Part shown: in pieces, positions 15,792-63,998 of the stretch
Position numbering within the stretch: the first letter of the stretch is position 1
Layout of the letters: the number at the start of each line of letters is the position of its first letter
Virus record (IMG/VR): IMGVR_UViG_3300032116_000094
Coordinates: 1-64,000 of that record
DNA from: a virus
Taxonomy: Duplodnaviria; Heunggongvirae; Uroviricota; Caudoviricetes
Strand: one strand, 5' to 3'
Length of the DNA stretch: 64,000 nucleotides
Made by a program: the position numbers and the translations under genes
Notes under the pieces: generated by a model
The model's database searches: none
What the model was told of the DNA's origin: nothing
What the model saw: only the letters and a program-made list of their open reading frames with translations

Positions 15792-16202
15792 ATGAAAAGA
15801 ACTATAAGGTTGACTGAAGATGATTTAACCAGGATTGTTAAAAAAGTAATTAATGAACAAAAAAACTTAGACGAGGCTTTTATTCGTAGTATATTCACTT
15901 CAGAAAATGATGAAATGTTAGAAAATATCTTTAAAATTATCAAAGATAATTTTAATCTAGATGATTTATCTCTATATCCTAATGGATATATGTATGAATA
16001 CAGAATTTTTGGAGGTTCTGCTGGAGTTTTAAGGGTGGTGAATGCTTGGTTATCTTTACCCCCAGACAGTAACATGATTGTATTATTAGATGGTAAGGAG
16101 ATTCGTTGCTCGTATATAATGGCCAGAAAAATATGGAATTTCTTTAAATCAAAATCAATTATTAAACCTATTAATAAGCCCAAAAGGATCGTAAAAAAAT
16201 GA
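15792..16202 (+). CDS. RLTEDDL N-module protein (136 aa)
   Basis: ORF. N-term MKRTIRLTEDDLTRIVKKVINEQKNLDEAF shared with 16262, 16752, 27016. Confidence 0.65.
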   Translation: MKRTIRLTEDDLTRIVKKVINEQKNLDEAFIRSIFTSENDEMLENIFKIIKDNFNLDDLSLYPNGYMYEYRIFGGSAGVLRVVNAWLSLPPDSNMIVLLDGKEIRCSYIMARKIWNFFKSKSIIKPINKPKRIVKK

Positions 16203-16230
16203 ACAATCGCCAATGATTGTGTTTTTTTTT
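16203..16230 (+). terminator. Rho-independent terminator
   Basis: ACAATC-gccaat-GATTGT hairpin followed by T9, directly after the stop at 16202. Confidence 0.6.
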
Positions 16231-16261
16231 ATTATAGATATTTATTATTAAAAAAATAATT

Positions 16262-16642
16262 ATGAAAAGAATTATAAGATTGACTGAAGATGATTTAACA
16301 AAAATTGTTAAAAAAGTCATTAATGAACAAAAAAAGTTAGACGAGGCTTTTTTTGATAAAAAAATAACTTCAGATGAGGATAAAAAATTAAGTGAGATAT
16401 TAGATTATATTGAAAACACATTTAATCCTAAAAATCTATCTGTAAAATCTAATTATTCTATCATCAAGTATAGGCTCCATGACGAAACATATTTAGAGAT
16501 TGAAGATACATCTATACCTGTTTTACTTATGAATAGTTTAATTGTTAGGTATGATAATAAAGTAATTGATTGCTCTTACAGCATGGCTAAAAAAATATGG
16601 AAATTCTTAGTCAAGAAATTTGATGAAATGGAAAATAACTAA
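16262..16642 (+). CDS. RLTEDDL N-module protein (126 aa)
   Basis: ORF. MKRIIRLTEDDLTKIVKKVINEQKKLDEAFF. C-terminal region ..CSYSMAKKIWKF similar to 15792 (CSYIMARKIWNF). Confidence 0.65.
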   Translation: MKRIIRLTEDDLTKIVKKVINEQKKLDEAFFDKKITSDEDKKLSEILDYIENTFNPKNLSVKSNYSIIKYRLHDETYLEIEDTSIPVLLMNSLIVRYDNKVIDCSYSMAKKIWKFLVKKFDEMENN

Positions 16643-16665
16643 TAACTATGTCCCCCACATAAAAA

Positions 16666-16697
16666 TGCACAATCGCCAATGATTGTGCATTTTTTTA
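16666..16697. terminator. Bidirectional rho-independent terminator (shares hairpin core with 16203-16230)
   Basis: TGCACAATC-gccaat-GATTGTGCA followed by T7. Lies between convergent genes. Confidence 0.6.
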
Positions 16698-16751
16698 TTG
16701 TATGATAATTATTGATTATCTTTTTTAAGAAATAAATTATGAAGTTTAAGG

Positions 16752-17150
16752 TTAACTTACGACTTCGAAAGCGTCTGCGTGATTATAGTGAAGCTGTACA
16801 AGATCTTCATATCTAGGCTTATATCCAGCTTTTTGATTCTTTTTTATATATTCTGGATGCGTGGTATCTTGACTATATAGAGCCTCTTTGTTTAGAGGCC
16901 TTAACTTCATCACGTTTCCGTCCATTCTCACAAACTCATACATTTCTCTTCCGTCTTTTATTACTTCTCCATCATCATCTACTCTCCATTTACGTTTTAT
17001 CTTTGTACCCGGTTCAAACGGAGGATTTTTCTTGTTTTTTCCTCCATATATACGATAATAATCCGTATGTTTTGATTTTTTTTCTTCGCTAATAATTCGT
17101 TTAACAATCCTTGTTAAATCATCTTCAGTTAGTCTTATAATTTTTTTCAT
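16752..17150 (-). CDS. RLTEDDL N-module protein (132 aa)
   Basis: ORF. MKKIIRLTEDDLTRIVKRIISEEKK. Confidence 0.65.
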   Translation of the reverse strand: MKKIIRLTEDDLTRIVKRIISEEKKSKHTDYYRIYGGKNKKNPPFEPGTKIKRKWRVDDDGEVIKDGREMYEFVRMDGNVMKLRPLNKEALYSQDTTHPEYIKKNQKAGYKPRYEDLVQLHYNHADAFEVVS

Positions 17151-17239
17151 AATTATTATTTTTAATAATAAATATCTTGATAAAAAAAAAACTACAATAA
17201 TTTACGGTTGTGCATTTTTTTTATCTACAAACCTCACAG

Positions 17240-17971
17240 TTACTTAATCTGATCAATGTCAACAATCTCAGAAAGATTAATCGCATCTGTATAATCACTT
17301 CTAAAAAGGCCTAGTGTAAAATTATCATTACCGATTTGTACTTTATTATAATGGTTTACAAGATCACCAAAATAATTAAGATCGCAATTAACGTCAGCAT
17401 CTAGCAATAATAATGTATAATCATCATCCGGATTACCTAGATATACATGAAATAACTTCGCCCCACAGGTTGTATATTTCAAGCTGCCTTTAGCATGAAG
17501 ACTCCAAGCGGGCATTTTATCAGCGTCGTAATAATCCTCAGGCAAAATAGATGATGTCCGAATAGGGCTAAACGGTAGACGATACTGTATCTTATCATTT
17601 TCATGACCATAGAGCATGTCAAACCAAAGAATCAAATTGGTATTACCAAATCGATACAAATAACCTTTCTTATTCTTGATAATCTTATTACCATGAATTT
17701 GCCCATATTCTAGCGGTTTTGGCTTCGCGTCATAGGTATACGACCACGTATATGCCGTGAACGCAGGTCCTTCAACTGTAGGTGTTGGTTCCGGTGTTGC
17801 TGGCGGCAAATTTACTTTATTGTATGTAATAGTTGATAGATCTATATCATAAGATACAACACCACATCTTAGAGTGCAAGTATTGTCGTTAACCTCAACA
17901 CAAAACACAAGTTTATTAGTGAGAAAATTGTGTGTGTGATTTGTTATATAATAATAGTTTCCAGCTACCAT
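17240..17971 (-). CDS. Family-5 paralog (243 aa)
   Basis: ORF. N-term MVAGNYYYI like MEAGKFYLI of 14875. C-term TTCGAKLF. Confidence 0.6.
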   Translation of the reverse strand: MVAGNYYYITNHTHNFLTNKLVFCVEVNDNTCTLRCGVVSYDIDLSTITYNKVNLPPATPEPTPTVEGPAFTAYTWSYTYDAKPKPLEYGQIHGNKIIKNKKGYLYRFGNTNLILWFDMLYGHENDKIQYRLPFSPIRTSSILPEDYYDADKMPAWSLHAKGSLKYTTCGAKLFHVYLGNPDDDYTLLLLDADVNCDLNYFGDLVNHYNKVQIGNDNFTLGLFRSDYTDAINLSEIVDIDQIK

Positions 17972-17991
17972 GATATTTTTTTGAAATATGT

Positions 17992-18378
17992 TTAATTTGT
18001 AAAAGATTCATCAACCCACCAATAATCACCATTGTCAATATCTATCAGATATATGTAACATTTATACTCTTCAGTATAACGGACTTCGACAATCTTACAA
18101 TCTTTTCCGAGATATTCCTCAATTCCTGTATTATCGTTTCGTCGATATAATATATGTGTTCTTAGAAGGCTACATATATTTTCTTTAGTTCTAACGCTGT
18201 CACCAACTGAATGTTGTGACGGAACACCGTCACAATGTGTAAGTAATTTTTCACTCATATAACCTGAGTTTTTAATTATATTAACAGAAAAAAAGATTAT
18301 TATAAATGTGAGAATTATACCAAGAATAACTATAATCTCCAGATATAGTTCTGTTAGTTCAAATCTCTTTAGTTTCAT
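17992..18378 (-). CDS. Hypothetical membrane-anchored protein (128 aa)
   Basis: ORF. N-terminal hydrophobic segment. TAtcTTTG box at 18386-18393 (leader ~8 nt). Confidence 0.5.
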   Translation of the reverse strand: MKLKRFELTELYLEIIVILGIILTFIIIFFSVNIIKNSGYMSEKLLTHCDGVPSQHSVGDSVRTKENICSLLRTHILYRRNDNTGIEEYLGKDCKIVEVRYTEEYKCYIYLIDIDNGDYWWVDESFTN

Positions 18379-18460
18379 GCTACAAAGATAATACGTTTAT
18401 TTAATCCATGCAAGTTTTTTTTTCTTTCCACTGAAATTTTCTATCCGTATTGCATTTTTA

Positions 18461-18883: not shown

Positions 18884-18920
18884 TTTTTTAAAAATGTTAA
18901 GTTAATTGAGTAAAAGATTG

Positions 18921-18999: not shown

Positions 19000-19153
19000 A
19001 ATAAATAAATAATGCTCGATACGTTTCCGTAAGACCCGTGTATTCCTCAGCTCGTTTTGAGCCTCATTCGAGAGTAACTGATGCCTTTTGCGCTTTAAAG
19101 AATTCGGGACCTTCAGCAAACTTAATAGTTTGGTCTCCTACTTCATTATTATT

Positions 19154-19470: not shown

Positions 19471-19477
19471 CCCTTTA

Positions 19478-20346: not shown

Positions 20347-20913
20347 CTACGATTCAATTATCTCTAACAAATAATCACAAGAATTAGATAAATTATGCGA
20401 TAATTCATATTGTTTACCCATAATATAACCAAGCAAATCTTCTAATCGATCATCATATCCATCATATAAATTTTCCGCATCAATACTCAGCTCATCTATC
20501 TTTTTAAGATACAACTCAAGATCTTTTAAAACCTGCCTCTGAAAACTATCTATAAAGCTTACTAGCCTATAATCAGGCTGCAAATTATCCATAATTACAT
20601 TAATAGTCTCTTTTATCTTAACTATCTCACCCCGCAAAAAAGACGCATACCCGGCGTTTAATATTTTTCTATTAAAAGAGTCCTCCCGATTACTCACAAT
20701 GTCATCATCAACAAAATCATAATTAACATCTCTAACTATGAGATTGTTTTTATTGATGAACTCTAATATAGAGTTTGTTATAAAATATAATTTATATGCC
20801 GCTTTCTTAAGCGAACTAAGACTTTCTTCTTGCTCAAATATGACATTTTTAACTATATTGTTAAGCTGGGTTTCTGTTATTATTAACTTATTCATAATAA
20901 TATATATACTCAC
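20347..20913 (-). CDS. Hypothetical protein (188 aa), N-terminus weakly RLTE-module-like
   Basis: ORF. N-term ..LIITETQLNNIVKNVIFEQEE. Confidence 0.5.
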   Translation of the reverse strand: MSIYIIMNKLIITETQLNNIVKNVIFEQEESLSSLKKAAYKLYFITNSILEFINKNNLIVRDVNYDFVDDDIVSNREDSFNRKILNAGYASFLRGEIVKIKETINVIMDNLQPDYRLVSFIDSFQRQVLKDLELYLKKIDELSIDAENLYDGYDDRLEDLLGYIMGKQYELSHNLSNSCDYLLEIIES

Positions 20914-21928: not shown

Positions 21929-23347
21929 CTATCTAGGTGGATAATATGATTTTACAAAAGTTTTGATTTCATGATCAAAGATTTCTCCTTCATGCCATTC
22001 ACCTTGAAACCATTTTCCATCACGCCAAAATCCCATAACAAATGTTCCATAAAACCATCTACTATCTTTAAATGTGCCATTATGCCATGTACCATTATTC
22101 CATGTACTATAATTAAATATACCATCATGCCATGTACCATTATTCCATGTACTATCATTAGTAAATGTACCTTTATGCCATGTACCATCATTCCATCTAC
22201 TATTATTAGTAAATGTGCCATTAAGCCATCTGCCGTTTTCCCACCGGCTATCATTAAATATACCATTATGCCATGTACCATTATGCCATGTGCCACCAAA
22301 AAATTTGCCATCAATCCAATCTCCATCATACCACTCTCCTTCAAGAAATATTATTTTTAAATCGTCATCGTCATTGTTTTTATGCTGAACAGAAAACACA
22401 GCATTACTGAAAGATGCTTCCGCTAACCAAGGTGCTATAATAAAAAGTCTTTCAGGTGTTAAGTTTCCAAGTAACCTACTAGTTTGTTTAGATAATTTAT
22501 CAATCTTTCTCTGATAATATACGTCATTAACTATTGGAACCGCGTTATTTGAATCGTATAATTTACTATCTTGGACAAAAACCCCAGTTTTACCTTTCTG
22601 GCAATAATCAAAAATTCTTAACAACGTTTTGGGATAATTTTTATTATGTAAACCATATTTAGTAAAAGAGTCATATTCAACGCCATACAATATATCAGTT
22701 CTCTTGTCTATAGAATAATAAGGTTTTATTAAAATCCTAGCTATTGGTCTTTTAATATTAAGATCATGTCGTTTTATCAAATAAGACACAATAGTGCCTT
22801 GAGTTATGTCTAACGGGAGATATTTGTTATATTGAGAAACTTTATCATCTCTTATATTCATGCAGGAAGTCCAATTTCTATCTGTACTCATACCTACTAT
22901 GTCATATGGATGCTTGCTAATAACAATTAAATAATCGTCACCAATAGATAATAAACTTTTCTCCCCAGCATATTTTTTTAATAGATCAAGTGCCTCTTTA
23001 TCCCTTTTACCTAAAAAAGTTAAAACTTTACCAATATTGATAATATTTTTATCATTAAATTTTTTTACTTTTCCTTTGTAAAAATTTACAACCTCATAAC
23101 CTCTATATCCTAGAAATTTTGTAATAATAGGCTCACATTCCAGGATATGTTTATCATCAGAGTCGTTTTTAACGTCATCTAATGTGAAATATAATCTATC
23201 CCCAGATTTGTTTTTGTAATTAGCTATTTTTTTTAAGTTATCCCATACATTTTCTATTCTTTGATTAGCTAGCCGACGATCAAGCCCCATATAAGGCCTA
23301 ATCTCAGATGGTTTTAAAGCCTCAAAAAGTTGTTTTTTGTTCCGCAT
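21929..23347 (-). CDS. Protein with C-terminal tandem W-x-(N/D)-G 8-residue repeats (472 aa)
   Basis: ORF. C-term GTWHNGTWHNGIFNDSRWENGRWLNGTFTNNSRWNDGTWHKGTF... with ~14 repeats, MORN- or cell-wall-binding-like. The nucleotide repeats create spurious ORFs on both strands. Confidence 0.6.
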   Translation of the reverse strand: MRNKKQLFEALKPSEIRPYMGLDRRLANQRIENVWDNLKKIANYKNKSGDRLYFTLDDVKNDSDDKHILECEPIITKFLGYRGYEVVNFYKGKVKKFNDKNIINIGKVLTFLGKRDKEALDLLKKYAGEKSLLSIGDDYLIVISKHPYDIVGMSTDRNWTSCMNIRDDKVSQYNKYLPLDITQGTIVSYLIKRHDLNIKRPIARILIKPYYSIDKRTDILYGVEYDSFTKYGLHNKNYPKTLLRIFDYCQKGKTGVFVQDSKLYDSNNAVPIVNDVYYQRKIDKLSKQTSRLLGNLTPERLFIIAPWLAEASFSNAVFSVQHKNNDDDDLKIIFLEGEWYDGDWIDGKFFGGTWHNGTWHNGIFNDSRWENGRWLNGTFTNNSRWNDGTWHKGTFTNDSTWNNGTWHDGIFNYSTWNNGTWHNGTFKDSRWFYGTFVMGFWRDGKWFQGEWHEGEIFDHEIKTFVKSYYPPR

Positions 23348-27015: not shown

Positions 27016-27555
27016 TTAATCAATATTATCCGCAAAGTCCATTTCAGTTTCTTTATATGGAGGAGTAGAATGAACAGGTAAGCCCATACCAGTAAATAAC
27101 TCATTACTCATGAGTTTATTATAAAGGTTTGGTGACATGGCTCCAGAAGGCTTTAAAGTTAAAAGAAACTTTATCCTAGTTAACTTTATCTTGTTCGCCA
27201 TTGTATTAACTATATAGTCATTTGATTCTTTGTATCTAATAGACTTTTCGATATTATCATTTAATACGTCTAGAAATTGTACATCTTTAACGTAAAAAGT
27301 ATTCTTACTTAAGCCACGTCCACGTGCTCCCGTAACAGCGTTAGCATCTTCTTTATTACAAAAAGCAATAATTTTTTTACCATTAGTTAGTTCATAAAGT
27401 AATCTATAACCTGTTAATTCATACATATTACCATCATGTATGAAATACGATCTACCTAAAATAACATCTTTTAAAGCTTCACGATCAGAATTCTCGTTAA
27501 TCACCTTTCTAATTAAATGTGTTAGTTCTGACTCTGTTAATCTTATCTTTTTCAT
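27016..27555 (-). CDS. RLTE N-module protein (179 aa)
   Basis: ORF. MKKIRLTESELTHLIRKVINEN. Promoter TTTG..TAccTTTG at ~27607-27650. Confidence 0.6.
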   Translation of the reverse strand: MKKIRLTESELTHLIRKVINENSDREALKDVILGRSYFIHDGNMYELTGYRLLYELTNGKKIIAFCNKEDANAVTGARGRGLSKNTFYVKDVQFLDVLNDNIEKSIRYKESNDYIVNTMANKIKLTRIKFLLTLKPSGAMSPNLYNKLMSNELFTGMGLPVHSTPPYKETEMDFADNID

Positions 27556-27646
27556 TTACAATTTTTTAATTATAAATATCATAAAGATGATGTTTTATTT
27601 CAGGCTACAAAGGTAAAATGTTTATACTAAACCAACAAATATTTTT

Positions 27647-34871: not shown

Positions 34872-35696
34872 TTAAACTTGGCTAGATTCCTTAAGCATTT
34901 CGTAAGCCCTAGCTAACCTTGTTAAACCAATACCTCCACCAAATCGCTCAAAGAAATTTAAACTAAGAAATTCTTCCAATTCTTTCTCAACTCGTTCTCT
35001 ACCAAATAATTCAAAAAGTTTATTGGCATATGCCCCATCCATTATGTTATAGAACATTTGCCTCATATAATTAACGTCACAAGATCTTTCCGCAGATCCA
35101 ATTGTTTCCTGCCCATAAAGGATAATATCTATCTTATTAAATAGATCATTTCCAGCATGTTTCATATTCCAAAATGGAGATGTCCTGTATGGAAATTTCT
35201 CTAAAGATATAACATTACCAAGTTCTTTCCACATCCTAGATTCGTGCTCATCCTCTAAAATAGGAACCCCTCCGTATTCATCACACATATCGTCATAGTT
35301 TCTACTAACCGGGCTAGAAAATCCTAGATAATCTAGAAGTTCAGCCTCCAATTTTTTAAGCTCAGCAAATCCCCCCTTTGACTCAAATTCAAACATAGGG
35401 AAAATTTTCTCATGTCTTCCAGGGATCGGGTTTTTCTCATTACGGTATGATGTGGAGACGCAAAACACACCTGGCCAATCAGGGTTCTTCAGAAGCTCAT
35501 ATTCAAGCCACATTTGACCCGTTTGTGGTAGAGGCCATACTACTCCATCGTATTCAAAAGTCGCCACAGAGTGGGGATTTTCGCACGCAGCGAGTATTGA
35601 TAATCTGGACTGAGTAGGTACCTCAATCCATCCTTTAGATAAAAAGAAAGATCTCATTTTAGAGACTAGTTCGTGATATGTTTTTGTTTGTTTCAT
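34872..35696 (-). CDS. AsnA-like / truncated class-II aminoacyl-tRNA-synthetase catalytic core (AsnRS/AspRS-type), no anticodon-binding domain
   Basis: ORF 274 aa. Motif 2-like YRNEKNPIPGRHEKIFPMFEFE. ETIGSAER. Motif 3-like FERFGGGIGLTRLARAYE. Confidence 0.55.
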   Translation of the reverse strand: MKQTKTYHELVSKMRSFFLSKGWIEVPTQSRLSILAACENPHSVATFEYDGVVWPLPQTGQMWLEYELLKNPDWPGVFCVSTSYRNEKNPIPGRHEKIFPMFEFESKGGFAELKKLEAELLDYLGFSSPVSRNYDDMCDEYGGVPILEDEHESRMWKELGNVISLEKFPYRTSPFWNMKHAGNDLFNKIDIILYGQETIGSAERSCDVNYMRQMFYNIMDGAYANKLFELFGRERVEKELEEFLSLNFFERFGGGIGLTRLARAYEMLKESSQV

Positions 35697-35742
35697 TTTA
35701 TTTATTTAGATCAAAAATAATAAATAAATGATGGTTTGTAAA

Positions 35743-36669
35743 TCATAACTGCTCAATTAATTCAGGTTTCCCAACAACTAGACTATATCTATTATGAAGA
35801 TTAGAATTGGTTGCTACTGTAATATACATTAAAACTAAGGTCATATATATATGTTCAACTAACTCATTTTTAGTTTTCTTAAAATATTCATAATTAAATA
35901 TTTCCGGCCTATTTGTTAATAGGTTATATTTAACATTTATTTCTGAATTTTTAACTACCATATCTGTTATCACAATATATTTAGTTAGATTTCTATTACT
36001 TGAAACATCAATAAACTTCTTGCTCATAACATGTTTTTTAAATTGTTCAAAAAAATACATAGTTAAATTATGTATTATCACATATATTTCTGTTGTTCTT
36101 TGTTTTAACGCAAATTCTAAATCAAATGTAGTTGCCTGTCTGATAATATGTTTTAATTGTTTACCATAAAAAGATTTCGACATAATATTAGGATCACTAT
36201 GATATTTGTTAATATTTTGAATAATATTAACATTATTGTAGGCAATATAATTTATTTCCCCCCCAATTTCACGGCATACGTATTTTTTATCCCTACCTTT
36301 ATACCACTCACCAACTACAATTCCCGAAATAAATGGAAATCCACACAAACCTAATAATAAAGATTCATTAGTACTTACAGGAAAAACTAATTTAGACCCA
36401 AAAATATCTTTTTCTGTTATTTTTGAACGAGGAATACCTTTCACTCTGGATAATTCTGTTAAATAACGATATCTGAGCGTGAAAATAAATGGAGGTAAAT
36501 CAAATATCTTATCCAAAGAAAATGTCTCAACTAACTTTATAAAAGTTCTATAAGGATAACTACTCATGTCAATCATAGCTAAAGAAAATTCTTCTGAGCT
36601 TAATTCAGAGAATCTCTTTTCTATTAGAGAATATACTTTAAATTCTAAATCAGAAATTTTAGGCTTCAT
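35743..36669 (-). CDS. Array-B paralog (308 aa)
   Basis: ORF. Shared family motifs (..Y.YL.LLS.KLN.P...IT..D.., W...G.GYKYV, NG.FYY). Confidence 0.6.
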   Translation of the reverse strand: MKPKISDLEFKVYSLIEKRFSELSSEEFSLAMIDMSSYPYRTFIKLVETFSLDKIFDLPPFIFTLRYRYLTELSRVKGIPRSKITEKDIFGSKLVFPVSTNESLLLGLCGFPFISGIVVGEWYKGRDKKYVCREIGGEINYIAYNNVNIIQNINKYHSDPNIMSKSFYGKQLKHIIRQATTFDLEFALKQRTTEIYVIIHNLTMYFFEQFKKHVMSKKFIDVSSNRNLTKYIVITDMVVKNSEINVKYNLLTNRPEIFNYEYFKKTKNELVEHIYMTLVLMYITVATNSNLHNRYSLVVGKPELIEQL

Positions 36670-36685
36670 TAGTTTGTTGTGGTTT

Positions 36686-37582
36686 TTATATATAATTGAC
36701 TGCGCATCGATAATTGTAATTCAAAAACTCAGTTTTCTTTATAAGGAATTCTTTGTATTGGCGATCAAGATATTGTTGACCAGAATATAAGCTAATTTTA
36801 TCCATAAATTTATTTATTTTACGGCAATAAAAATTTACTGTTCTATCTTCATGATTTACAACAACATTATCTAAAATAATACTAAAAACGTCTTTTAATT
36901 TAATATGAACTAAACGTGCATCATCACTTTTTATGTAAGTTTTAAAGTCATCAGTGATTGTTCTTAATATAACAGCTACAATATAATCGAAGTCAGCATC
37001 CGAACTTTGGTTTAAAACTATATTAAGATCATTCTTTTTGCATTTTGCAATAATACACTGTTTATTATTCATTACATCATATATATTATAGTATTTAGTA
37101 AAAAGATCATTTTCATGAAAAACCATGTTATTAAATGAAACTAAATTTATCATCCCCGTAGGATTTCTACCAACATATTTAAACCCATTTTTTCTATGCT
37201 CCCATTTGGAATGAAAATTATCAGACATAATAGGAAACCCAAATGCAACCAGTTCTCCTATTACCGAATAACCAACATTAATGTTAAGGACATTATTTAT
37301 TATATCATCAACGGTAATCTGACTTAGGCTTTTATTCAATTTTTCGGATAATAAAGTTAAATAATAGTATCGCATATAAAACAATTTGGTAGGATACCCT
37401 GTACTATCTTCAACATTTAAAGTCTCCATTAATTTTACAAATCTGGTATATAATTTACCTCCACTAATAAAACTAGCATATCCTGGGGCATATTTAAACA
37501 TCATTTTTTTTGGATCATACCCCATAAATTTATTAAATGTTCTATATAAATTAGGTTCAAAACTGAATATCTTTGGTTCCAT
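36686..37582 (-). CDS. Array-B paralog (298 aa)
   Basis: ORF. Family motifs. Confidence 0.6.
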   Translation of the reverse strand: MEPKIFSFEPNLYRTFNKFMGYDPKKMMFKYAPGYASFISGGKLYTRFVKLMETLNVEDSTGYPTKLFYMRYYYLTLLSEKLNKSLSQITVDDIINNVLNINVGYSVIGELVAFGFPIMSDNFHSKWEHRKNGFKYVGRNPTGMINLVSFNNMVFHENDLFTKYYNIYDVMNNKQCIIAKCKKNDLNIVLNQSSDADFDYIVAVILRTITDDFKTYIKSDDARLVHIKLKDVFSIILDNVVVNHEDRTVNFYCRKINKFMDKISLYSGQQYLDRQYKEFLIKKTEFLNYNYRCAVNYI

Positions 37583-37603
37583 ATTTTTATTTAATAATTT
37601 TTA

Positions 37604-38527
37604 CTACGTATTAAAATTTAAGTTAATATTTAAATTATATAACTCACTTAATTTTGATTTACTATAAACATAGTCAGAATATTGTTTATAAATACCATGC
37701 CACCAGGTACTCTTAATATTATCTATAAGCTGATCATCATAATCATCTGGAGCACTAACTATATTTATGTTTACTGTCATTTTTTTAGCCCTTGAATCTA
37801 CTTCAAATGTTGCATTCGCGGAATAAAAAAAATCCCACTCACGATAAAAACCCGTAACACCAAAATGATCCTTAGCATTATCACAGAAAGACTCCGTAAG
37901 GTTTTCACTAATTGCCCCAATTATATCCCGATTTTTTGTGTTTAATATAACCCTAAGATCCTCTTGTTTACAAGGAACTATACCATTAAGCCAGATAACT
38001 ACATCAAATAATTCTTCATCGTAATAAAAAATACCATTTTCAAGAATAATACCAAGTAAAATATTATCTGAAGTTCTAGCTACATATCTTTTTGATTTTA
38101 TATCCCAAGAACCGACAATACTTTTATTAGATGGAGATTTAAAAATCCATATTTTTTTTGCTGTAAAAGGAAATCCCCCCCGGATAATTCCAAACATTTC
38201 CTCAGCATAAAATGTGGGAATTTGTATTGGCTTTGCATTATAAACGTCAGACTCTGTTATTTCGTTTACAGGTTTATTTAATTTTTGTGATAGTAATTTT
38301 AAATAGATATAACGAGAAACCGCCATATTAATCGTAAAAGACTGAAATTTATAGCTAGGCATTTTTAGTTTTTCAAGACGTCTGGTCATCCTATGAATAA
38401 CAACGCCTAAACTAAAACTATCAGACATTATGTTTTGGTTAAAATCTTCTAGGTATATTTTAAGTTCTCTTTCAATCAATACTCTAAGAGCTTTCTCTAA
38501 TGGAGAAATTGTAAGCATTATTTTCAT
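37604..38527 (-). CDS. Array-B paralog (307 aa)
   Basis: ORF. Family motifs. Confidence 0.6.
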   Translation of the reverse strand: MKIMLTISPLEKALRVLIERELKIYLEDFNQNIMSDSFSLGVVIHRMTRRLEKLKMPSYKFQSFTINMAVSRYIYLKLLSQKLNKPVNEITESDVYNAKPIQIPTFYAEEMFGIIRGGFPFTAKKIWIFKSPSNKSIVGSWDIKSKRYVARTSDNILLGIILENGIFYYDEELFDVVIWLNGIVPCKQEDLRVILNTKNRDIIGAISENLTESFCDNAKDHFGVTGFYREWDFFYSANATFEVDSRAKKMTVNINIVSAPDDYDDQLIDNIKSTWWHGIYKQYSDYVYSKSKLSELYNLNINLNFNT

Positions 38528-39465: not shown

Positions 39466-39493
39466 AATTTTTTAATACTATATTTATAAATAT

Positions 39494-40432: not shown

Positions 40433-41346
40433 TATATATATTTTTTACCATTTATGTATATACTAGTTTCGCCAGAATCTAACAAACGGCTATGAAAGAT
40501 GAAAGCACTACGTTGTAAATTATTCATTACATGAAGAAGCGTTTTAGCCACATTATTTAATAATTCATCTGTTTTTATTTTTGATTTAAAATAAAAATTT
40601 ATATTTTCTTTTCCGGAGTAATCAATTTTAATTAGCTTGGACTGAGTTTCTGCAAGATATTTTATATATTTTCCATCTTCATGTACTTCATACATACGTT
40701 TCAATTCTTTTATACTTAATTTCTTTATTTTATCTATATAACCACTATAATCTAAATCATAGGTTTCTATAACTTCAAGATCACGGATTGAACAAGGTCT
40801 AGCAAAATCACTAAAAATACTTGGGATAGTGAAATTATATGTATCATAATTATAGTAGAACTCCCCATTTGTATATATAAACCAAAGTCCTGAACTATAA
40901 ACTTTATACTTAAGACCATTCTTGTTAACCCAAACAGCTTTCATATCATCCCCAGTGAAAGGTATCAAATTAGCAATTGCTGCTGTCGCCCACTCGTTAT
41001 CTTTTACTAAGATATCTTTCGCATTTATAATATCCTTTTGTGTCAAATAATTTATGTGCTTATCTAACTTTGCCGCTATTTCTGAGCAAAGTATATATTT
41101 GACATATAAAACGGTTAAATCACCTTGTATTCCAAAAAATTTAGCTTTTTTAATGAAAATTTCTTCCGATTTTTGAGCAAAACCTGCTGATAGGTAAATA
41201 TATCGATATAAATCGAAACTAATTTTCAGTTTTCTAACTGGATTATAATACTGAAAAGTCTTCGCAGCTTCATATAATGACTCTTCAACTTTTTTTAAAA
41301 AAAATATTTCACGACTATTAAATACTATGCCCATAATTATAAACAT
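40432..41346 (-). CDS. Array-B paralog (304 aa; start may be internal)
   Basis: ORF. Family motifs. 5' end overlaps the upstream paralog by ~29 nt. Confidence 0.55.
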   Translation of the reverse strand: MFIIMGIVFNSREIFFLKKVEESLYEAAKTFQYYNPVRKLKISFDLYRYIYLSAGFAQKSEEIFIKKAKFFGIQGDLTVLYVKYILCSEIAAKLDKHINYLTQKDIINAKDILVKDNEWATAAIANLIPFTGDDMKAVWVNKNGLKYKVYSSGLWFIYTNGEFYYNYDTYNFTIPSIFSDFARPCSIRDLEVIETYDLDYSGYIDKIKKLSIKELKRMYEVHEDGKYIKYLAETQSKLIKIDYSGKENINFYFKSKIKTDELLNNVAKTLLHVMNNLQRSAFIFHSRLLDSGETSIYINGKKYI

Positions 41347-42262
41347 TAATACCGTTTATGTTTAACCGAACCCTAGAGTATGAAAAGTTAGATAAGTTAC
41401 CTATGTTATTATATGACATATGAATAAAAGTTGCAATGCCGTCTCCAAGTTTATGTATACTTTTTTCCGATAAATTAGAAATATCACGGTTAAGTGGTGT
41501 TTTAAGATCAACGATTAATATTTTATCTAATATTTTAAAATCATCCAAAACCAACCCTTCATCTTTAAAATTAGCATCAAATTTCAGTTGCTCTGTCAAA
41601 AATTTTTTTAATTTTTTAAAATTTAATTTTGTAAGATAATCAACTAACTCTTCATGGCTAAAATCATGATTCATAATTATATTTAATTCACGAGCAGTCG
41701 ATTTTTCTTTATTTGGTAAATATGTCCCAATATATGGGGGACTTGAATGATTAAATACGTTATCATTATAATAATATACCCCATTAGTATAAACTAGAGC
41801 TAAATTTTGATTTTTTTTAACAACATATTTTAAGCCATTAACTTCAACCCAATTTGAGATAAATGATTTTGATCTGCTTGGCACCAATAACGATATTGCC
41901 GGTAAAAAATCAGGCCTTGATACAAGGATAGGTGTAAAATTAATTACATCTGACATTGTTAGATCTTTAACCGGTTTATTATTTCTTGCAGCAATCTCTG
42001 AATACAAAAGATATTTGACAATCTCTCGTCGTGGATTAACATTATAATAACCCAATTTATTTAATAACTTCATAAGTTCTTTAAATGAAAATTGACTAAA
42101 ATCAGGTAAATAAATATAATCATCATATATTTTTGTGAGGAAACTAGGATTTATATACTTCTCCGGCGGGCTATCACCAAAATATTTGCGATAAATATGA
42201 TTAATATATTTATTAATTATACCATAAGAAATAACATCTCTATTATTTAATAATCTTTCCAC
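41318..42262 (-). CDS. Array-B paralog (314 aa)
   Basis: ORF. Family motifs. Confidence 0.6.
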   Translation of the reverse strand: MERLLNNRDVISYGIINKYINHIYRKYFGDSPPEKYINPSFLTKIYDDYIYLPDFSQFSFKELMKLLNKLGYYNVNPRREIVKYLLYSEIAARNNKPVKDLTMSDVINFTPILVSRPDFLPAISLLVPSRSKSFISNWVEVNGLKYVVKKNQNLALVYTNGVYYYNDNVFNHSSPPYIGTYLPNKEKSTARELNIIMNHDFSHEELVDYLTKLNFKKLKKFLTEQLKFDANFKDEGLVLDDFKILDKILIVDLKTPLNRDISNLSEKSIHKLGDGIATFIHMSYNNIGNLSNFSYSRVRLNINGINVYNYGHSI

Positions 42263-42325
42263 AACCCGCTTTTAATTTTTAAATGTTTATGTATATACTT
42301 ATCAAGATACTCATATAGTGCGGTT

Positions 42326-43255
42326 TCACTTTTTGTTATTAGATTTTCCATATATTTTAATTTCTACGTTTATTTCATATTTATTCGGAATATCAAGAGC
42401 ATATTCATATGGCTCCCCCATTATAGATTTTAATAATCTATCTTTCACTACATCCTCAAAATAAGCTTTAGATCCTGAAGTTATTGAATTTTTCTCAGAA
42501 GTAATTTTAAAATTAAAGCCATTTTTTGTTTTTTTAACTTCATTGACTAAAAATTTTTCAGAAACATGGCCAGCTATATTAACGGTTATAGACCCAAAGT
42601 ATACCTGGAAATATTCATATACTTTTTTATGAACAAATTTTTTAACTTGTTCCAAAGTATAGTCATTTTCGGCAATATAATTTATTAAACTTGGTCCAAC
42701 AGAAATAAGGTTAAATTTTTTTGCAATATTATCAAAAGGAATATTTGGTGCAAAATAATAGTATTCTCCATTTGAATATACAAATGATGCCTGATCTTCG
42801 ATAGAATTGTTATAATAAACATAATTATTGCCTTTATCCTTAATCCATTTGGATGCTCCAACAGCTCCTTGAGCTGTTTTAAATGGAATTTTAGAAATTA
42901 AAAGAGCCGGAATAAATGAAACTACAGTTTTTTGTTGCGGCAGTTTCATTAAATCATTAATATCTATTTCTGAATAATTTTTACCAAATAAATTTTTTAT
43001 CGTTGAAAAATGTATGTATCTACCAAAATAATAATTAAACATCATCCCTGCTGTAGATACCCCCAATCTAGATAAAACAGATTTAAACGTTTTCATAATA
43101 AATTCTCTATTCACAATGTTATTAACATATGCACTAGCCATATCACCAATAAATTCGTCAGCCATAGATGGAGCATATAACATAAATTTTTGATAAATTA
43201 ACCTATCAGCCGCACTAAAAAGTGTTATATCAAATTTAGATAAAACTCTACTCAT
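42326..43255 (-). CDS. Array-B paralog (309 aa)
   Basis: ORF. Family motifs. Confidence 0.6.
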   Translation of the reverse strand: MSRVLSKFDITLFSAADRLIYQKFMLYAPSMADEFIGDMASAYVNNIVNREFIMKTFKSVLSRLGVSTAGMMFNYYFGRYIHFSTIKNLFGKNYSEIDINDLMKLPQQKTVVSFIPALLISKIPFKTAQGAVGASKWIKDKGNNYVYYNNSIEDQASFVYSNGEYYYFAPNIPFDNIAKKFNLISVGPSLINYIAENDYTLEQVKKFVHKKVYEYFQVYFGSITVNIAGHVSEKFLVNEVKKTKNGFNFKITSEKNSITSGSKAYFEDVVKDRLLKSIMGEPYEYALDIPNKYEINVEIKIYGKSNNKK

Positions 43256-43256
43256 A

Positions 43257-44156
43257 TTACTCTACTTCAATTATAAAATTTAATTTTGATATATCTATCA
43301 AATTACGATAAATTCTTATTATGTAAGAATTAATAAGAGCAACTTTTATCGCTCCGCCGTTTATTAGTTCTTCATATAAACTGTTAGTAAGATATTGGCC
43401 TATAACTTTAAACTTAAATTTAAATGTCCTCTTAGAGAAAGATACGCCAATAATTTTTAAATCCACATTTTTTTCAGAAAGAGTTCTCGCTGTCAATAAT
43501 AAATCGATATATGTTTTAGCTTTTCGACCCATACTAATTATTGCTGCTTTTTCGATATCTGCTGAACGATTATCATATATAATCGACATCTCAGGATCAT
43601 TCACTAAACGGATGTCTGGCCCAAGATTTGATGTGTCAAATTCTTGCCAGTCAGGAAAAGCTATTTTATTCCTATAAAGAATACCTCCAGAATAAATCCA
43701 AGAAATAATCCGGCTCCCATTTATATCAGTAATTACAACATATTTTTGTCCTTTAAAATTTACCCATTTACCTATAGATTTAAGTGTAAATGGTACTTTA
43801 AAAAAAATCGCAGCAGAAACTGCTGACTGATTATGCATAAAACCAGGACCACGTATATGACTTTCCATAAAATCTTCTTGAGTTAAAGATTTACGGTTTT
43901 TATTATGTTTATAACAAACATGTGAGCTAAAAATATATTTAAAAAACATAAATCCAAAGTTATCTCTTTGATAACCAAAAAAAGGTATTTTTTTTAAAAA
44001 AGCATTTTTTATCTCATCATGATATTTGTTATACATAGAAAGCATATCTTTCTGCTGGTCATTTTGAAAGACAATATTAGATAATACATTTTCACTAATG
44101 TATTTATCTATGCTTTCAAATGCAACTATTTCCCTTTTTGTGAAAAATTCTGGCAT
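43257..44156 (-). CDS. Array-B paralog (299 aa)
   Basis: ORF. Family motifs. Confidence 0.6.
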   Translation of the reverse strand: MPEFFTKREIVAFESIDKYISENVLSNIVFQNDQQKDMLSMYNKYHDEIKNAFLKKIPFFGYQRDNFGFMFFKYIFSSHVCYKHNKNRKSLTQEDFMESHIRGPGFMHNQSAVSAAIFFKVPFTLKSIGKWVNFKGQKYVVITDINGSRIISWIYSGGILYRNKIAFPDWQEFDTSNLGPDIRLVNDPEMSIIYDNRSADIEKAAIISMGRKAKTYIDLLLTARTLSEKNVDLKIIGVSFSKRTFKFKFKVIGQYLTNSLYEELINGGAIKVALINSYIIRIYRNLIDISKLNFIIEVE

Positions 44157-44167
44157 AAAAATATTGA

Positions 44168-45127
44168 TTAGAATTTAATATTTATATCTGACAAATCTAT
44201 AGAATCCGCACTAAAAACACTTGTATTTAAATCATACCCATGTTTATCAAATTGAATTAAAAAATACACCTTATCATGCACCCTATTTTTAATAGCAATT
44301 TTTTCATCTAGGCTAAGATCCTTAGGGTTAATTTTTGAGTTGTTTTCAGCATCTATTATATTGATTATTTTTATATCAAAAATAATTTTTTCATTTTCAT
44401 TTCTTATACTAGTAAATTTAAAGTAAATATCCGTATCTTCATCTGGTGGGGCTGAAATATAATATCTGTTTTGCTGATCATCCCCTAACTTAAACCCTTT
44501 AGTAAAATCAACAGCAAGTTGATCGTATATGGCTTTTTTAAATGAATTATCTTTGTCAATTTTACTATTAATAACGGTCTCTAACTCAAATAACGTAACA
44601 TGACGAGTTTCGTCAGTTATTCCTTTCGGTAACTTTATATTACGGCCAAAAGTATTTACCGTGTTGTATTTTAACTTATATTTCTCATTATTTACATAAG
44701 CAAAAAAAGGCACCACATCACTAAACCTTTTTTCATAACATACATATTTAAGCCCAGTATCTGATTGATTAATCCAGCGGCTTATTGTAGAAGCGTCTAC
44801 ACAATCATACTCTAAAAAATTTAGAATAAATGCATTTTGTAACTCGCGATTTCTAATTTTAAATTTTTGACCAATCAAATCTTTAAAATCAAGATCAATT
44901 AATTTTTTATTTCTATTTTTTGCTATTATATTATAACACAAATATTTAATACCATAATAGTCGTCAGAATTAGGGTACAAAATCCCGAAATATCTTAAAT
45001 ATTTGCGAACGAATAATATCATTCCAAAATAATTTTCATTAGACACTGAAAACAGATCCTTGTTTTTTAATTTTTTATCTAAATAACTAAATAATTTAAT
45101 TTCGAAGTCCGATACTAACTTAATCAT
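44168..45127 (-). CDS. Array-B paralog (319 aa, most divergent)
   Basis: ORF. Weaker family similarity. Confidence 0.5.
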   Translation of the reverse strand: MIKLVSDFEIKLFSYLDKKLKNKDLFSVSNENYFGMILFVRKYLRYFGILYPNSDDYYGIKYLCYNIIAKNRNKKLIDLDFKDLIGQKFKIRNRELQNAFILNFLEYDCVDASTISRWINQSDTGLKYVCYEKRFSDVVPFFAYVNNEKYKLKYNTVNTFGRNIKLPKGITDETRHVTLFELETVINSKIDKDNSFKKAIYDQLAVDFTKGFKLGDDQQNRYYISAPPDEDTDIYFKFTSIRNENEKIIFDIKIINIIDAENNSKINPKDLSLDEKIAIKNRVHDKVYFLIQFDKHGYDLNTSVFSADSIDLSDINIKF

Positions 45128-47255: not shown

Positions 47256-47543
47256 TCATTTTGTACCTATAATTAAATCGTCGAAATTTATATTGGGGTT
47301 TTTATTATTCTTAATATCTCCAGAATTAACAATTCTCGCAATGTTAATTATCTCAGAATGGCATACAGATATTTTATCTCTTAAATTTTCAGTCATTTGA
47401 TATTGTTCAGATTCAATAACTTGCCACAAATTTTCACAAATTACTGACATCTCATGTAACTTAGTTTTAAGATCTTCCCCATCCTGAGATGGCTCTCTAA
47501 CGAGAGTCGCTAATTGTTCCGTTGTTATTATAATTTTGGCCAT
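47256..47543 (-). CDS. Hypothetical protein (95 aa)
   Basis: ORF. Confidence 0.5.
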   Translation of the reverse strand: MAKIIITTEQLATLVREPSQDGEDLKTKLHEMSVICENLWQVIESEQYQMTENLRDKISVCHSEIINIARIVNSGDIKNNKNPNINFDDLIIGTK

Positions 47544-50540: not shown

Positions 50541-50551
50541 GAACTAATTTG

Positions 50552-50623
50552 TGGCGGAGCCTGGACTCGAACCAGGACCTTTAGGTTATGAGCCTAATGA
50601 AGTAACCCTTTTTCCACTCCGCA
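50552..50623 (-). tRNA. tRNA-Met (anticodon CAT; initiator/elongator/Ile2 not distinguishable)
   Basis: Minus strand TGCGGAG-T-G-GAAAAAGGGTTACTTCA-TTAGG-CTCATAA-CCTAA-AGGT-CCTGGTTCGAGTCCAGG-CTCCGCC-A. Clean anticodon stem-loop with CAT. T-arm. Acceptor pairs 2-7. 1:72 mismatch. No CCA. Confidence 0.6.
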
Positions 50624-60957: not shown

Positions 60958-61026
60958 GCTTTTATATTGTGTTTTATGTGTAAATGACATTTTTTTTAAT
61001 TTTTAACAACACAAAAAATATTATAT

Positions 61027-61671: not shown

Positions 61672-61873
61672 ATTCAATGTTAGATATAACAATTTTAAAC
61701 ATTTTATCTTCATTACCAATAACATTGGTAAGTTCATTAATAGTTGAATTAAAATCATCCTTTGACACTTCAAAAACAACTGTTTTATTACCGGTATATA
61801 GCTGATCCAGTCCTTCTGAGATTAAAGCTAATTTACCTAAAATCCCATCAAAACTTTTTTTATCTTTGTCCAT
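61649..61873 (-). CDS. Hypothetical protein (74 aa)
   Basis: ORF. Confidence 0.35.
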   Translation of the reverse strand: MDKDKKSFDGILGKLALISEGLDQLYTGNKTVVFEVSKDDFNSTINELTNVIGNEDKMFKIVISNIEFIFVLNE

Positions 61874-62025
61874 AAGGTATGTTGTTTAGGTTCTTCGTCC
61901 AAAATTTGTGATTTCTTCAATCCAGCCAAAGATTTTGCAAATTCTTGCTTTTCTTTTTCAAGCTCGGCTTGGTCTTTTTGTTTTTCACTGTTCAGCCAGT
62001 TCTGTAGTTTCTGTAATCTGCTCAT
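61837..62025 (-). CDS. Hypothetical small protein (62 aa)
   Basis: ORF. K/E-rich. Confidence 0.3.
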   Translation of the reverse strand: MSRLQKLQNWLNSEKQKDQAELEKEKQEFAKSLAGLKKSQILDEEPKQHTLWTKIKKVLMGF

Positions 62026-62410
62026 TGTTTATTTTTGTAGTATCTTTCTTTATATCAAAAGTTAGATTGTATAAATCGCTTATTGGGTATTTACTGAAAA
62101 AGGTATCCAGCTCATTTTTTTTCTGCACCAATAACAATTCTTTTGCTTCATTTTCCTTATTATATTGAATAAGACCTTTAATATTGTCAAATTGTGATTC
62201 CATTGATAAATCATTTAATTCACAAAAAAAAGAAAAAGTCCTGTAGCCTTCAGAAATTTGTTTCTGTTCTGCAACTGTTTCTTTGTCAACAAATTTCTTA
62301 ATGAGTTTCCATTTTTCCGGGAAAGAGACATCTATGCTCAAAAACTTATCCAATTTCCTTATAGAAATTAAATAAGGTAAAATTTGCTCTAAATTTTCAT
62401 ATAATTTCAT
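61985..62410 (-). CDS. Hypothetical protein (141 aa)
   Basis: ORF. Confidence 0.5.
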   Translation of the reverse strand: MKLYENLEQILPYLISIRKLDKFLSIDVSFPEKWKLIKKFVDKETVAEQKQISEGYRTFSFFCELNDLSMESQFDNIKGLIQYNKENEAKELLLVQKKNELDTFFSKYPISDLYNLTFDIKKDTTKINNEQITETTELAEQ

Positions 62411-62584
62411 TGCTAGTAAATAACGTAGGTTATTATGTATGATAACATCATACCATAGAAAATTAATTCTGTGTTTGTTAACTTAACATGTTTCGCCGGT
62501 GTACTAAGTATTGAAAATATAATGATAGCAAACAATCTTATAATTGCCAATATCGAAAAAACAAGTATGTAAAACAAACAAAGA

Positions 62585-62767
62585 TTAATCATTTTTATTC
62601 TTTCTTTCTTCTAAGATTGTTTTTCTTAATGCTAACATATCTTCCTTAATTTCAAGGGCAAGCTTCCTAGCTCTGGTTCCAGCACTATCATTACCTTGAC
62701 TAAACTTACGAAGTTCCATTGATATAGTCTCAGTTTTAGCTTTTAATTCATTAATAAATTTTTCCAT
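62585..62767 (-). CDS. Hypothetical small protein (60 aa)
   Basis: ORF. Confidence 0.35.
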   Translation of the reverse strand: MEKFINELKAKTETISMELRKFSQGNDSAGTRARKLALEIKEDMLALRKTILEERKNKND

Positions 62768-62804
62768 AATTAATTCTATTTAAATTTATGTTTATTGTAA
62801 AGAT

Positions 62805-63251
62805 TTATCTTATAATATTTTTGTCCAACAATTTATAAAATCTCAAACATAAGTCTAATTCATATTTGGTATGAGGCTTGTAGTGATCAAAAATGCCTGA
62901 GAAATACCGAATTATTTCATTTTTTAACTTGGCTTCATCATGAGAATAATAAATCTCTAAGAAAAGAGTTTTAAAATATTCATAATGCTCACCTTCTTCT
63001 CTGAAATAGATGTTTTCTTTCTTAAAATTTTGAATGGTATTGTTCCAGCACCATTTAAAATGGTTAATGTTATCGTTTAATGATGTCGTGATCCTTGTCT
63101 CAACAGGAACAGAGGTTCCTCCAAGATATGTTTTTTTTATTAGATTAGTAAGAGAGATTAAAAAATCTAAAAAAAGTTCACTTTTTTCTGGTATTAAGTT
63201 ATTAACGCTTAACCAGGTTTCGATATCTTCTTTAGTTATGTTTTTCGCCAT
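62805..63251 (-). CDS. Hypothetical protein (148 aa)
   Basis: ORF. Confidence 0.5.
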   Translation of the reverse strand: MAKNITKEDIETWLSVNNLIPEKSELFLDFLISLTNLIKKTYLGGTSVPVETRITTSLNDNINHFKWCWNNTIQNFKKENIYFREEGEHYEYFKTLFLEIYYSHDEAKLKNEIIRYFSGIFDHYKPHTKYELDLCLRFYKLLDKNIIR

Positions 63252-63317
63252 TTAAAAAAAAATTCCATAGATAAGTCTATGGAATTAATATAATAAAAAA
63301 AATAATTAAATTAAATA

Positions 63318-63998
63318 CTATTGTGTTGGTTTTGTGTAATTTGTTAAAACATTAATTCTATTGAACTCTTCATGTAATATTGTCTTTTCAGACTCATTTT
63401 TAGATTCTAACTTAGCTAATATATCCTGAGATGTCTTTTTAGTTTTAGCTTTACCTAAAGCACCCTTAGGCCCTAATTTACTACCAGCATAATCTATAGG
63501 TGTAGGATATCTTTTATATGACGCATTTTTTTGTTCCTGGCCGTAATAGTTGTTTTTATAATTTTTCATCATTCTCTCACCCAATTCACTTTCAACCGCA
63601 TTTGCATATTTTTGAGAATTACCTGATTTAGCATCACCTTTTAAATATCTCGCTATTCTCTCATCATCAAAATGTATTTCATCTGGTATTAAATTTGTCA
63701 TACCAGGATGTGAAAATGCGTCAACATATTCATCAACAGCATCTGAAGGGATATAGGCTTTCTTATCCATTTTAGCTAATTCACCATTACCCTTTGGAAA
63801 TCCTTTAGGGTTTGGATCAAATTTACCTTTAGATCCATCTTTAAGGTACTCATTCATTTTTTTAGCAACATCCTTAATAGCCTGGTTGTTTTCCTGCTTA
63901 GATTTTTTTAAAACTTTCTCTGTCTCAGCTAAACCTTTTGCTTTTTTTTGCTCAGAAACAATATTATATATCAAAAATCTAAGTTCAGATTCTGTCAT
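63318..63998 (-). CDS. Hypothetical protein (226 aa) with RLTE-module-like N-terminus
   Basis: ORF. N-term MTESELRFLIYNIVSEQKK. Start ATG at 63998, just inside the window. Confidence 0.5.
   Translation of the reverse strand: MTESELRFLIYNIVSEQKKAKGLAETEKVLKKSKQENNQAIKDVAKKMNEYLKDGSKGKFDPNPKGFPKGNGELAKMDKKAYIPSDAVDEYVDAFSHPGMTNLIPDEIHFDDERIARYLKGDAKSGNSQKYANAVESELGERMMKNYKNNYYGQEQKNASYKRYPTPIDYAGSKLGPKGALGKAKTKKTSQDILAKLESKNESEKTILHEEFNRINVLTNYTKPTQ

Follow-up and report, generated by a model that had tools for sequence, protein, structure and literature searches.

The 64,000-nt stretch of viral DNA analysed here (hereafter the window; positions 1 to 64,000 of IMG/VR virus record IMGVR_UViG_3300032116_000094) encodes four small proteins that begin with nearly the same 22 residues. 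This leader, with the almost invariant consensus MKKIIRLTESDLTRIVKRVIxE, is termed the module here, and the remainder of each protein its cargo. The module belongs to a large viral family in which it precedes unrelated cargos, it is conserved as a peptide rather than as nucleic acid, and its last residues match the cleavage motif of the T4 head protease gp21. Contigs related to the window carry T4-type head genes. Our explanation, put forward tentatively and at somewhat short of an even chance, is that the module may be a lineage-specific prohead targeting and processing peptide, a functional analogue of the T4 capsid targeting sequence (CTS). The likeness would lie in function; by sequence the module is not a member of the T4 CTS family.

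A leader conserved as a peptide on unrelated cargos

The window is AT-rich (∼29–30% G+C) and its small open reading frames (ORFs) are tightly packed. Four of them (genes A–D, Table 1) share the N-terminal pattern MK[KR]xIRLTE[DS][DE]LT[RKH][IL][VI][KR][KR][VI]I[NS]E, with a one-residue deletion in the module of gene D. A six-frame scan of the window with a module hidden Markov model (HMM) gave 47–52 bits for genes A–C and 25 bits for gene D, and no frame beyond these four ORFs rose above the inclusion threshold. Pattern and scores together bear out an earlier note, made from the sequence alone, that had described a near-verbatim N-terminus for these four genes. That note had also proposed weaker sharing by two further genes, and here the outcome was divided. 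Gene E (20347) does belong to the family but has diverged: its match with the narrow HMM is borderline (E 0.025), an iterated profile recruits it, and its start is likely the ATG at 20895 (MNKLIITETQLNNIVKNVIFEQ). The truncated ORF at 63318 has a weak copy of the module core, MTESELRFLIYNIVSEQ, at 63948–63998; because this lies at about residue 120 of the full 345-aa protein, it is an internal motif and not the N-terminal module.

Genes A and B, taken by the earlier note for a tandem duplicate including a terminator hairpin, are indeed whole-length paralogues, with 46% identity over the whole protein, and ACAATCGCCAATGATTGT occurs twice, at 16203–16220 and within 16661–16694. Their cargos alone are 35% identical over 96 aa (E 9e-16), so the claim that the C-terminal parts differ fails for this pair; it holds for all other pairs of window module genes, whose cargos show no similarity. 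The cargo of gene C has homologues that lack the module, namely P0004, P0005 and a protein of the 636-kb uncultured phage LR756504.1 that matches gene C over residues 24–132 only.

Gene C, used as the query of a word-indexed search, matched dozens of metagenomic proteins in which the first 22 residues fit MKKIIRLTE[SD]DLTRIVKR[IV]IxE and the remainder was wholly different. A profile search of 1.84 billion representatives of 50%-identity clusters then placed the module in 7,647 clusters at E ≤ 1e-3 and in 614 at E ≤ 1e-10; among the top 150 clusters listed, the best module match begins at residue 1 in most. IMG/VR held at least 250 confirmed module-bearing viral contigs, of up to 321 kb. Cellular genomes, taken as one per species from 185,579 bacterial and archaeal species, yielded two confirmed matches, both on 3–4-kb contigs of metagenome-assembled genomes. 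The family is almost purely viral, being effectively absent from cellular genomes. Related loci that we fetched, totaling 1.2 Mb, contained 205 HMM copies at densities of up to 10 per 20 kb, almost all beginning at the initiator Met of ORFs of ∼75–360 aa.

Contrary to the earlier note, the module is not strictly N-terminal. Nearly all copies in the fetched loci do start at Met1, but a second HMM match was present in 43 of the 142 top-scoring database proteins, mostly as an internal core (K/R)LTESDLxRIVKRVIKE without the Met; a few of these second matches were very weak or partial. Two-copy proteins such as P0078–P0119 have one copy at the N-terminus and one internal, with domains of ∼100 aa between them, and could be polyprotein-like precursors or fused tandem genes.

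Profile searches of Pfam-A and PHROGs with the module gave no match, the best hit of a sequence profile search of the PDB was not significant (E 0.089), and none of its motif strings occurs in the 8 million papers of the searchable literature. Against GenBank phages, tblastn with the consensus module found nothing in 50,697 records, megablast with 10 kb of the window found no match, and the full-length gene C protein matched through its cargo only, in LR756504.1. The earlier note had held that a generic N-terminal domain widespread outside this genome would weaken the idea of a dedicated tag. Taken literally, the module is widespread, with its 7,647 clusters, but it is confined to related viral contigs, and this limited spread together with the lack of a Pfam or PHROG family argues for, not against, a lineage-wide dedicated tag.

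When 257 sampled module proteins were clustered by cargo they fell into 152 clusters with no BLASTP similarity between clusters at 1e-5, at a median length of 125 aa. Those that could be annotated include PG_binding_1, VanY, Tae4, YkuD/Tlde1 and several 'endolysin' PHROGs on the one hand, and an S-adenosylmethionine lyase, an anti-restriction PHROG, sigma-70 region 4 and regulators, and a GNAT on the other. Cell-wall enzymes, S-adenosylmethionine lyase, anti-restriction and sigma-70 region 4 proteins are cargo types of kinds that phages are known to eject. Homologues of the VanY-type cargo P0036 (P0220–P0286) carry other recurrent leaders, M..IITESEKKEILKKH..L.E, MNL.ENIQRIKEMMGI..E and MIKLKN(I/M)L.E, which suggests that leader classes of their own exist in other phage lineages. 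Many of these homologues have [LIVM]-x-E within the leader; the chance rate of that motif in 40 residues is high, and we did not use it.

Synonymous codons vary freely within the conserved coding segment. Among 119 non-identical copies L7 is encoded by TTA, CTA, CTT or TTG, T8 by all four ACN codons, S10 by six codons and R18 by five. Because these invariant residues use 4–6 synonymous codons, the constraint is on the peptide and not on DNA or RNA, and a DNA- or RNA-level element was rejected. At the protein level, conservation reaches 90% or more at 16 of the 22 module positions, over cargos that are unrelated and over many phage genomes. When the alignment was broadened to 172 distinct leaders, E22 was present in 160 of 160 aligned, position 20 was always I, L or V, and position 21 was the least conserved; conservation collapses past E22. 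The earlier picture of a constant tag on variable cargo thus stands, with the 152 unrelated cargo clusters on one side and peptide-level selection on the other.

In an AlphaFold2 model of gene C (mean predicted local distance difference test score, pLDDT, 70.9), a helix spans residues 9–26, a low-confidence linker residues 25–39, and a separate beta-rich domain residues 50–131. The helix places L12, I15, V16, V19 and I20 on one face and R14, K17 and R18 on the other, and the module is net positive, with an isoelectric point (pI) of ∼10.3. The module is predicted to form a basic amphipathic helix, with a disordered linker after it, and the amphipathic helix that the earlier note had suggested looking for is present in the model. 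Sec, Tat and lipoprotein signals have a short basic n-region, a hydrophobic h-region of ∼7–15 residues and a small-residue cleavage site. Such a signal was rejected here: charged residues make up 9 of the 22 in the consensus, no hydrophobic run exceeds 2 residues, and there is no AxA-type site. The suggestion of a secretion signal is therefore unsupported, given the module's high charge and its lack of a hydrophobic core.

Head genes, predicted maturation site and promoter-like box

Large ORFs neighbouring module genes in the IMG/VR loci match tail sheath, Portal_T4 (gp20), T4-type TerL, ribonucleotide reductases (RNRs), ClpB and Hsp70. Queries with T4 proteins found homologues of gp20, gp21 and gp23 in module-bearing loci, and the nearest cultured relatives of the gp21 homologue are annotated head maturation proteases of T4-like cyanophages, at <44% identity. 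One such gp21-like protease is encoded at L064:2639–3370. The same IMG/VR loci encode SprB repeats and CHU_C type-IX-secretion domains, both characteristic of Bacteroidota. The module-bearing phages are probably uncultured T4-like jumbo myophages, and their hosts are probably Bacteroidota. For the window itself we infer this T4-like setting because related contigs carry the T4-type portal, protease, capsid protein and tail sheath.

The head cluster opens with a conserved ∼450-aa protein directly upstream of TerL, after which the order is TerL–portal–p238–p155–protease–p71–scaffold–major capsid protein (MCP). With 969 homologues, the ∼450-aa protein always has a 16-aa leader, MGNKDLERLIRKIVKE, followed by APVDYGDY. 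This leader matches module residues 7–22 and ends in E before a highly conserved, presumably mature, start. The gene lies at L087:1247–2590 and in 22 other head-cluster loci, where the half-module leader ends KE/APVDYGDYPERM (the slash marks the predicted cut here and below); its product is mostly helical and its function unassigned. An AlphaFold2 model of it (mean pLDDT 48) was too poor for fold search or classification, and a profile search of the PDB with it gave no match. The putative scaffold (L064:4126–5577, 483 aa) is extremely acidic and is a plausible partner of a basic helix.

The capsid protein of module-bearing phages lends independent support to a link with head maturation. It reads ASFLINE/ATSEG where T4 gp23 has GSFLTE65/AEIGG, E65 marking the known maturation site of gp23. 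The predicted site of the resident protease is accordingly written I-N-E, which equals the commonest module ending, V-I-N-E. The conserved part of the module ends in an invariant [I/L/V]-x-E, and a second site of this type, L7-T8-E9, lies within it. At the level of the motif, the ending is that of gp21, which in T4 cleaves after L/I-X-E (PMC9026906). The 10-residue CTS of IPIII, itself ending in a gp21 site, is enough for foreign proteins to be taken up into T4 heads.

All four window module genes have a ATATTTAT/TATTTAT box 16–17 nt 5′ of the ATG. Across the loci, TATTTAT precedes 126 of 180 module genes, as against 35% of other called genes, mostly at 12–19 nt 5′ of the ATG, with a second class at 4–6 nt. 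The box is also found 5′ of p238, the protease, the scaffold, MCP and a tail-sheath gene, and is not found 5′ of ClpB (0/6) or RNR genes (0/6); ClpB instead has a TTGAC...TATAAT-like sequence. Since the same TATTTAT box precedes the module genes and the head and tail genes, they share a promoter class. The p155 gene of the head cluster has a different conserved upstream motif, TTGATATATATCACAAA.

Features of the window and its flanks

Coordinates of the module genes and associated elements are collected in Table 1. Genes B and C converge on a hairpin that resembles a terminator acting in both directions. The module-gene cluster A–C is flanked by ORFs of ∼245–280 aa (14093–14854, 14875–15711 and 17240–17971 on the minus strand). 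At least two of these, 14875 and 17240, have similar N-termini (MEAGKFYLIKTD... and MVAGNYYYITNH...), as if they formed a further family of paralogues; a scan of one copy gave no match to any family.

Table 1. Module genes, promoter-like boxes, hairpins and related contigs; positions are those of the window unless a locus is named
Feature	Position	Strand	Description
Module gene A	15792..16202	+	136 aa; module = codons 1–22 (15792–15857), MKRTIRLTEDDLTRIVKKVINE; HMM 46.7 bits
ATATTTAT promoter-like box	15768..15775	+	16 nt 5′ of gene A ATG
Terminator-like hairpin ACAATCGCCAATGATTGT + T-run	16203..16230	+	3′ of gene A; read from sequence
ATATTTAT box	16238..16245	+	16 nt 5′ of gene B ATG
Module gene B	16262..16642	+	126 aa; module 16262–16327; HMM 47.0 bits; tandem paralogue of A
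15-pair hairpin	16661..16694	.	A-run/T-run flanks; contains ACAATCGCCAATGATTGT core; between converging genes B and C
Module gene C	16752..17150	-	132 aa; module 17085–17150, MKKIIRLTEDDLTRIVKRIISE; HMM 51.8 bits; beta-rich cargo (predicted)
ATATTTAT box	17168..17175	-	17 nt 5′ of gene C ATG
Module gene D	27016..27555	-	179 aa; module 27493–27555, MKK-IRLTESELTHLIRKVINE; HMM 25.1 bits
ATATTTAT box	27572..27579	-	16 nt 5′ of gene D ATG
Divergent member E	20347..20895	-	182 aa from ATG at 20895; leader MNKLIITETQLNNIVKNVIFE (20833–20895), ends I-F-E
ORF cut by window end	63318..63998	-	C-terminal 226 aa of a 345-aa protein (L162:8897–9934)
TATTTAT boxes	15768, 16238, 17168(-), 23371(-), 27572(-), 27928, 31048, 45956(-), 50636(-), 57368, others		Also in loci L064, L083–L161
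Contigs with module genes and T4-type head/packaging genes	L064, L092, L008, L027, L061 (= L168), L033 (= L181), L068 (= L135)

The window also has two tandem arrays. Positions 190–13125 (plus strand) hold 38 head-to-tail paralogous ORFs of ∼95–114 aa (MSKEEYYSKIKRFVYRKFDELEV...) with a mean pairwise identity of ∼43%, and no Pfam match was recorded for any copy; metagenome assemblies break within this array. Eleven tandem ORFs of ∼250–320 aa, many of them weakly paralogous (∼28% identity), lie at 34872–45127 on the minus strand; the one scanned (44168–45127) had no Pfam match. At 21929–23347 (minus strand), with a TATTTAT box upstream, is a 472-aa protein with C-terminal Trp-rich repeats (GTWHNGxF / WNNGTWHDGIF...) and again no Pfam match. 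A tRNA-Met gene at 50551–50623 (minus strand) also has the promoter box upstream. A distant variant of the leader may head the 95-aa ORF at 47259–47543 (minus strand), which starts MAKIIITTEQLATLVRE 5 nt downstream of a TATTTAT box; this ORF was not recruited by the iterated module profile.

Beyond the right end, an exact protein look-up led to locus L162, which covers this flank and has accessory genes only: just past the window end it encodes a sigma-70 r2/r4 protein, an Amidase_2, a DUF6576 (also a module cargo) and a Metallophos protein. On the left, assemblies end in the 38-copy array.

Possible prohead targeting and its alternatives

If the module is a prohead targeting and processing peptide, its genes would be transcribed from TATTTAT-box promoters like the head and tail genes, and the basic amphipathic helix (residues 9–22; face L12/I15/V16/V19/I20) would dock each protein onto the very acidic scaffold core of the assembling prohead. 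A gp21-type protease would then cut after E22 ([I/L/V]-x-E), possibly also after E9 (L-T-E), freeing within the head a mature cargo of ∼100 aa median length. The cargo would be ejected with the DNA at the next infection, and its targets would then be the cell wall, restriction systems or transcription. Delivery by virion ejection is the account that most easily unifies periplasmic and cytoplasmic cargos, and it has a parallel in T4 IPI* and Alt.

In T4 the CTS is found on IPI, IPII, IPIII and the Alt propeptide and is removed by gp21 (PMC9026906, PMC3012670). The module resembles it as a short N-terminal leader on unrelated small proteins that ends in L/I-X-E, in the company of gp20, gp21 and gp23 homologues and an acidic scaffold-like protein; the mature products would likewise be ∼10–20 kDa and include anti-restriction and host take-over cargo. 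It differs in having no similarity to MKTYQEFIAE, in its length (22 versus 10 residues) and far stronger conservation, in its internal second copies, and in hosts that are probably Bacteroidota. The T4 CTS is on 3–5 proteins per genome, whereas the module is on thousands of cargo families, with up to 10 genes per 20 kb. A second point of comparison is the inner-body propeptides of phiKZ, 201phi2-1 and SPN3US, which are cut by gp21-related proteases after S/A/G-X-E (PMC9026906, PMC5694885). There too a range of different proteins enters the head by way of cleavable N-terminal regions, the cut falls after the Glu of a three-residue motif, and redundant sites, which are common, parallel our L-T-E9 and I-x-E22. 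Those propeptides, however, are not one conserved sequence, the motif here is of the T4 type (I/L at P3) rather than S/A/G, and we saw no chimallivirus markers in the module-bearing phages.

Several observations weigh against a prohead peptide. Module HMMs gave ≤0 bits with T4 IPI, IPII, IPIII, Alt, gp67 and gp68 (CTS MKTYQEFIAE / MKTFKEF...). Any amphipathic helix in which the x is exposed would be just as likely to end in [I/L/V]-x-E, and the three-residue motif alone is weak evidence. The internal second copies are not predicted by a pure N-terminal signal. Up to 10 module genes per 20 kb would mean many more packaged species than in T4, and only ∼10% of cargo clusters are annotated, leaving ∼90% without annotation. 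The T4-type head genes were found on related contigs and not on the window's own: the 64-kb window is an accessory region in which no head genes were found, and it shares non-module genes with the module-bearing loci L042, L029 and L058, not directly with the head-gene loci. About one-third of all genes called in the sample have the TATTTAT box upstream, as does the window tRNA; because the box is this common, we infer rather than assert that TATTTAT genes form a 'late' class. Finally, a module gene lies directly downstream of the protease in just 2 of 74 protease loci, L064 being an example. A regular position between protease and scaffold, as in L064, was therefore rejected for want of enrichment, and we did not use synteny as evidence.

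Some of these observations would be better accommodated if the module were a docking helix for another conserved hub, such as host RNA polymerase, the membrane, the gliding/type IX secretion machinery, or the phage's own ClpB or Hsp70, which these phages encode. Many effector domains would then be gathered at one site in the cell, and cleavage would be unnecessary. We regard this main rival as unlikely but worth serious consideration. Near-invariance over thousands of cargos points to one conserved partner, the module is a basic amphipathic helix carried on a flexible linker, internal copies suit a binding motif more than they suit a leader, and the head operon shows no enrichment of module genes. 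A docking helix nevertheless leaves unexplained why E22 and the hydrophobic P3 are the best conserved positions and P2 the worst, as in L/I-X-E, why the same I-N-E recurs at the predicted MCP maturation site, why the same leader is on a conserved gene beside TerL and portal, and why the promoter box is common to structural genes; cell-wall hydrolase cargos, moreover, act in the periplasm, beyond the reach of an intracellular hub. A related but rather improbable proposal is that the near-invariant helix of 18–22 residues, N-terminal or internal, is the address label of a hitherto unrecognised sorting route in infected Bacteroidota rather than a T4-style capsid signal, read by one conserved receptor that could be a phage chaperone, the membrane or ejection apparatus, or a host machine. 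Thousands of effector families would be routed in this way, many of them cell-wall enzymes of the type seen among type VI secretion system effectors, and the label would be a phage counterpart of the markers on effectors of bacterial secretion machines.

Three further explanations draw on the helix or on the DNA around it. Hydrophobic residues at i, i+3, i+4, i+7 and i+8 (L12, I15, V16, V19, I20) within the predicted helix 9–26 would suit a coiled-coil-like helix by which small phage proteins dimerise or oligomerise. Self-association is very unlikely all the same: oligomerisation helices tolerate wide variation, yet 16 of 22 positions here are ≥90% conserved, ∼14 residues are short for a stable coiled coil, and one shared helix would make unrelated proteins hetero-oligomerise indiscriminately. 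The positive charge (pI ∼10.3), the resemblance to the first helix of sigma region 4 (LTxxExxIV) and the presence of sigma-70 region 4 or regulators among the cargos are what speak for a nucleic-acid-binding helix that tethers proteins to phage DNA or RNA. We consider that a slim prospect, as a lone 14-residue helix is no known autonomous DNA-binding unit, no similarity to helix-turn-helix families was found in Pfam, PDB or PHROGs, and binding to nucleic acid would serve no purpose for the cell-wall hydrolase cargos. The most doubtful is that conservation reflects shuffling of DNA, with terminator, promoter box and constant 5′ coding segment serving as homology handles by which co-infecting phages swap cargos, in the manner of the promoter(early) stem-loop (PeSL) elements of T4-type phages, for which exchange is documented (PMC2839356, PMC4122927). 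Each window module gene is a unit of box, module and cargo, A–C are bracketed by terminator hairpins, copies share 78–86% blastn identity over ∼100 nt including the upstream region, and a given cargo can be found both with the module and without it. As in PeSL, small variable accessory ORFs lie between a conserved promoter and a stem-loop terminator, an arrangement that favours modular exchange. Unlike PeSL, which is non-coding DNA, the conserved unit here takes in the first 66 nt of the coding region, where it is the amino acids and not the DNA that are conserved; its invariant residues use 4–6 codons and long identical DNA tracts are lacking, so that shuffling may be a side effect only and cannot account for the conservation.

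Even if its receptor is not the prohead, the module is an uncharacterised 22-residue peptide, nearly invariant over more than 7,600 protein clusters, for which Pfam, PHROGs and the searchable literature have no entry. If it is a prohead targeting peptide, a simple search of sequences would yield the complete 'ejectome' of a large clade of uncultured T4-like jumbo phages: thousands of small proteins delivered with the DNA, ∼90% of them without known function, that would be candidates for anti-defence, cell-wall and takeover roles. It would also supply a compact conserved tag for loading foreign proteins into the heads of Bacteroidota phages. The CTS principle, known from a few T-even proteins, would then scale to genome-wide cargo loading.

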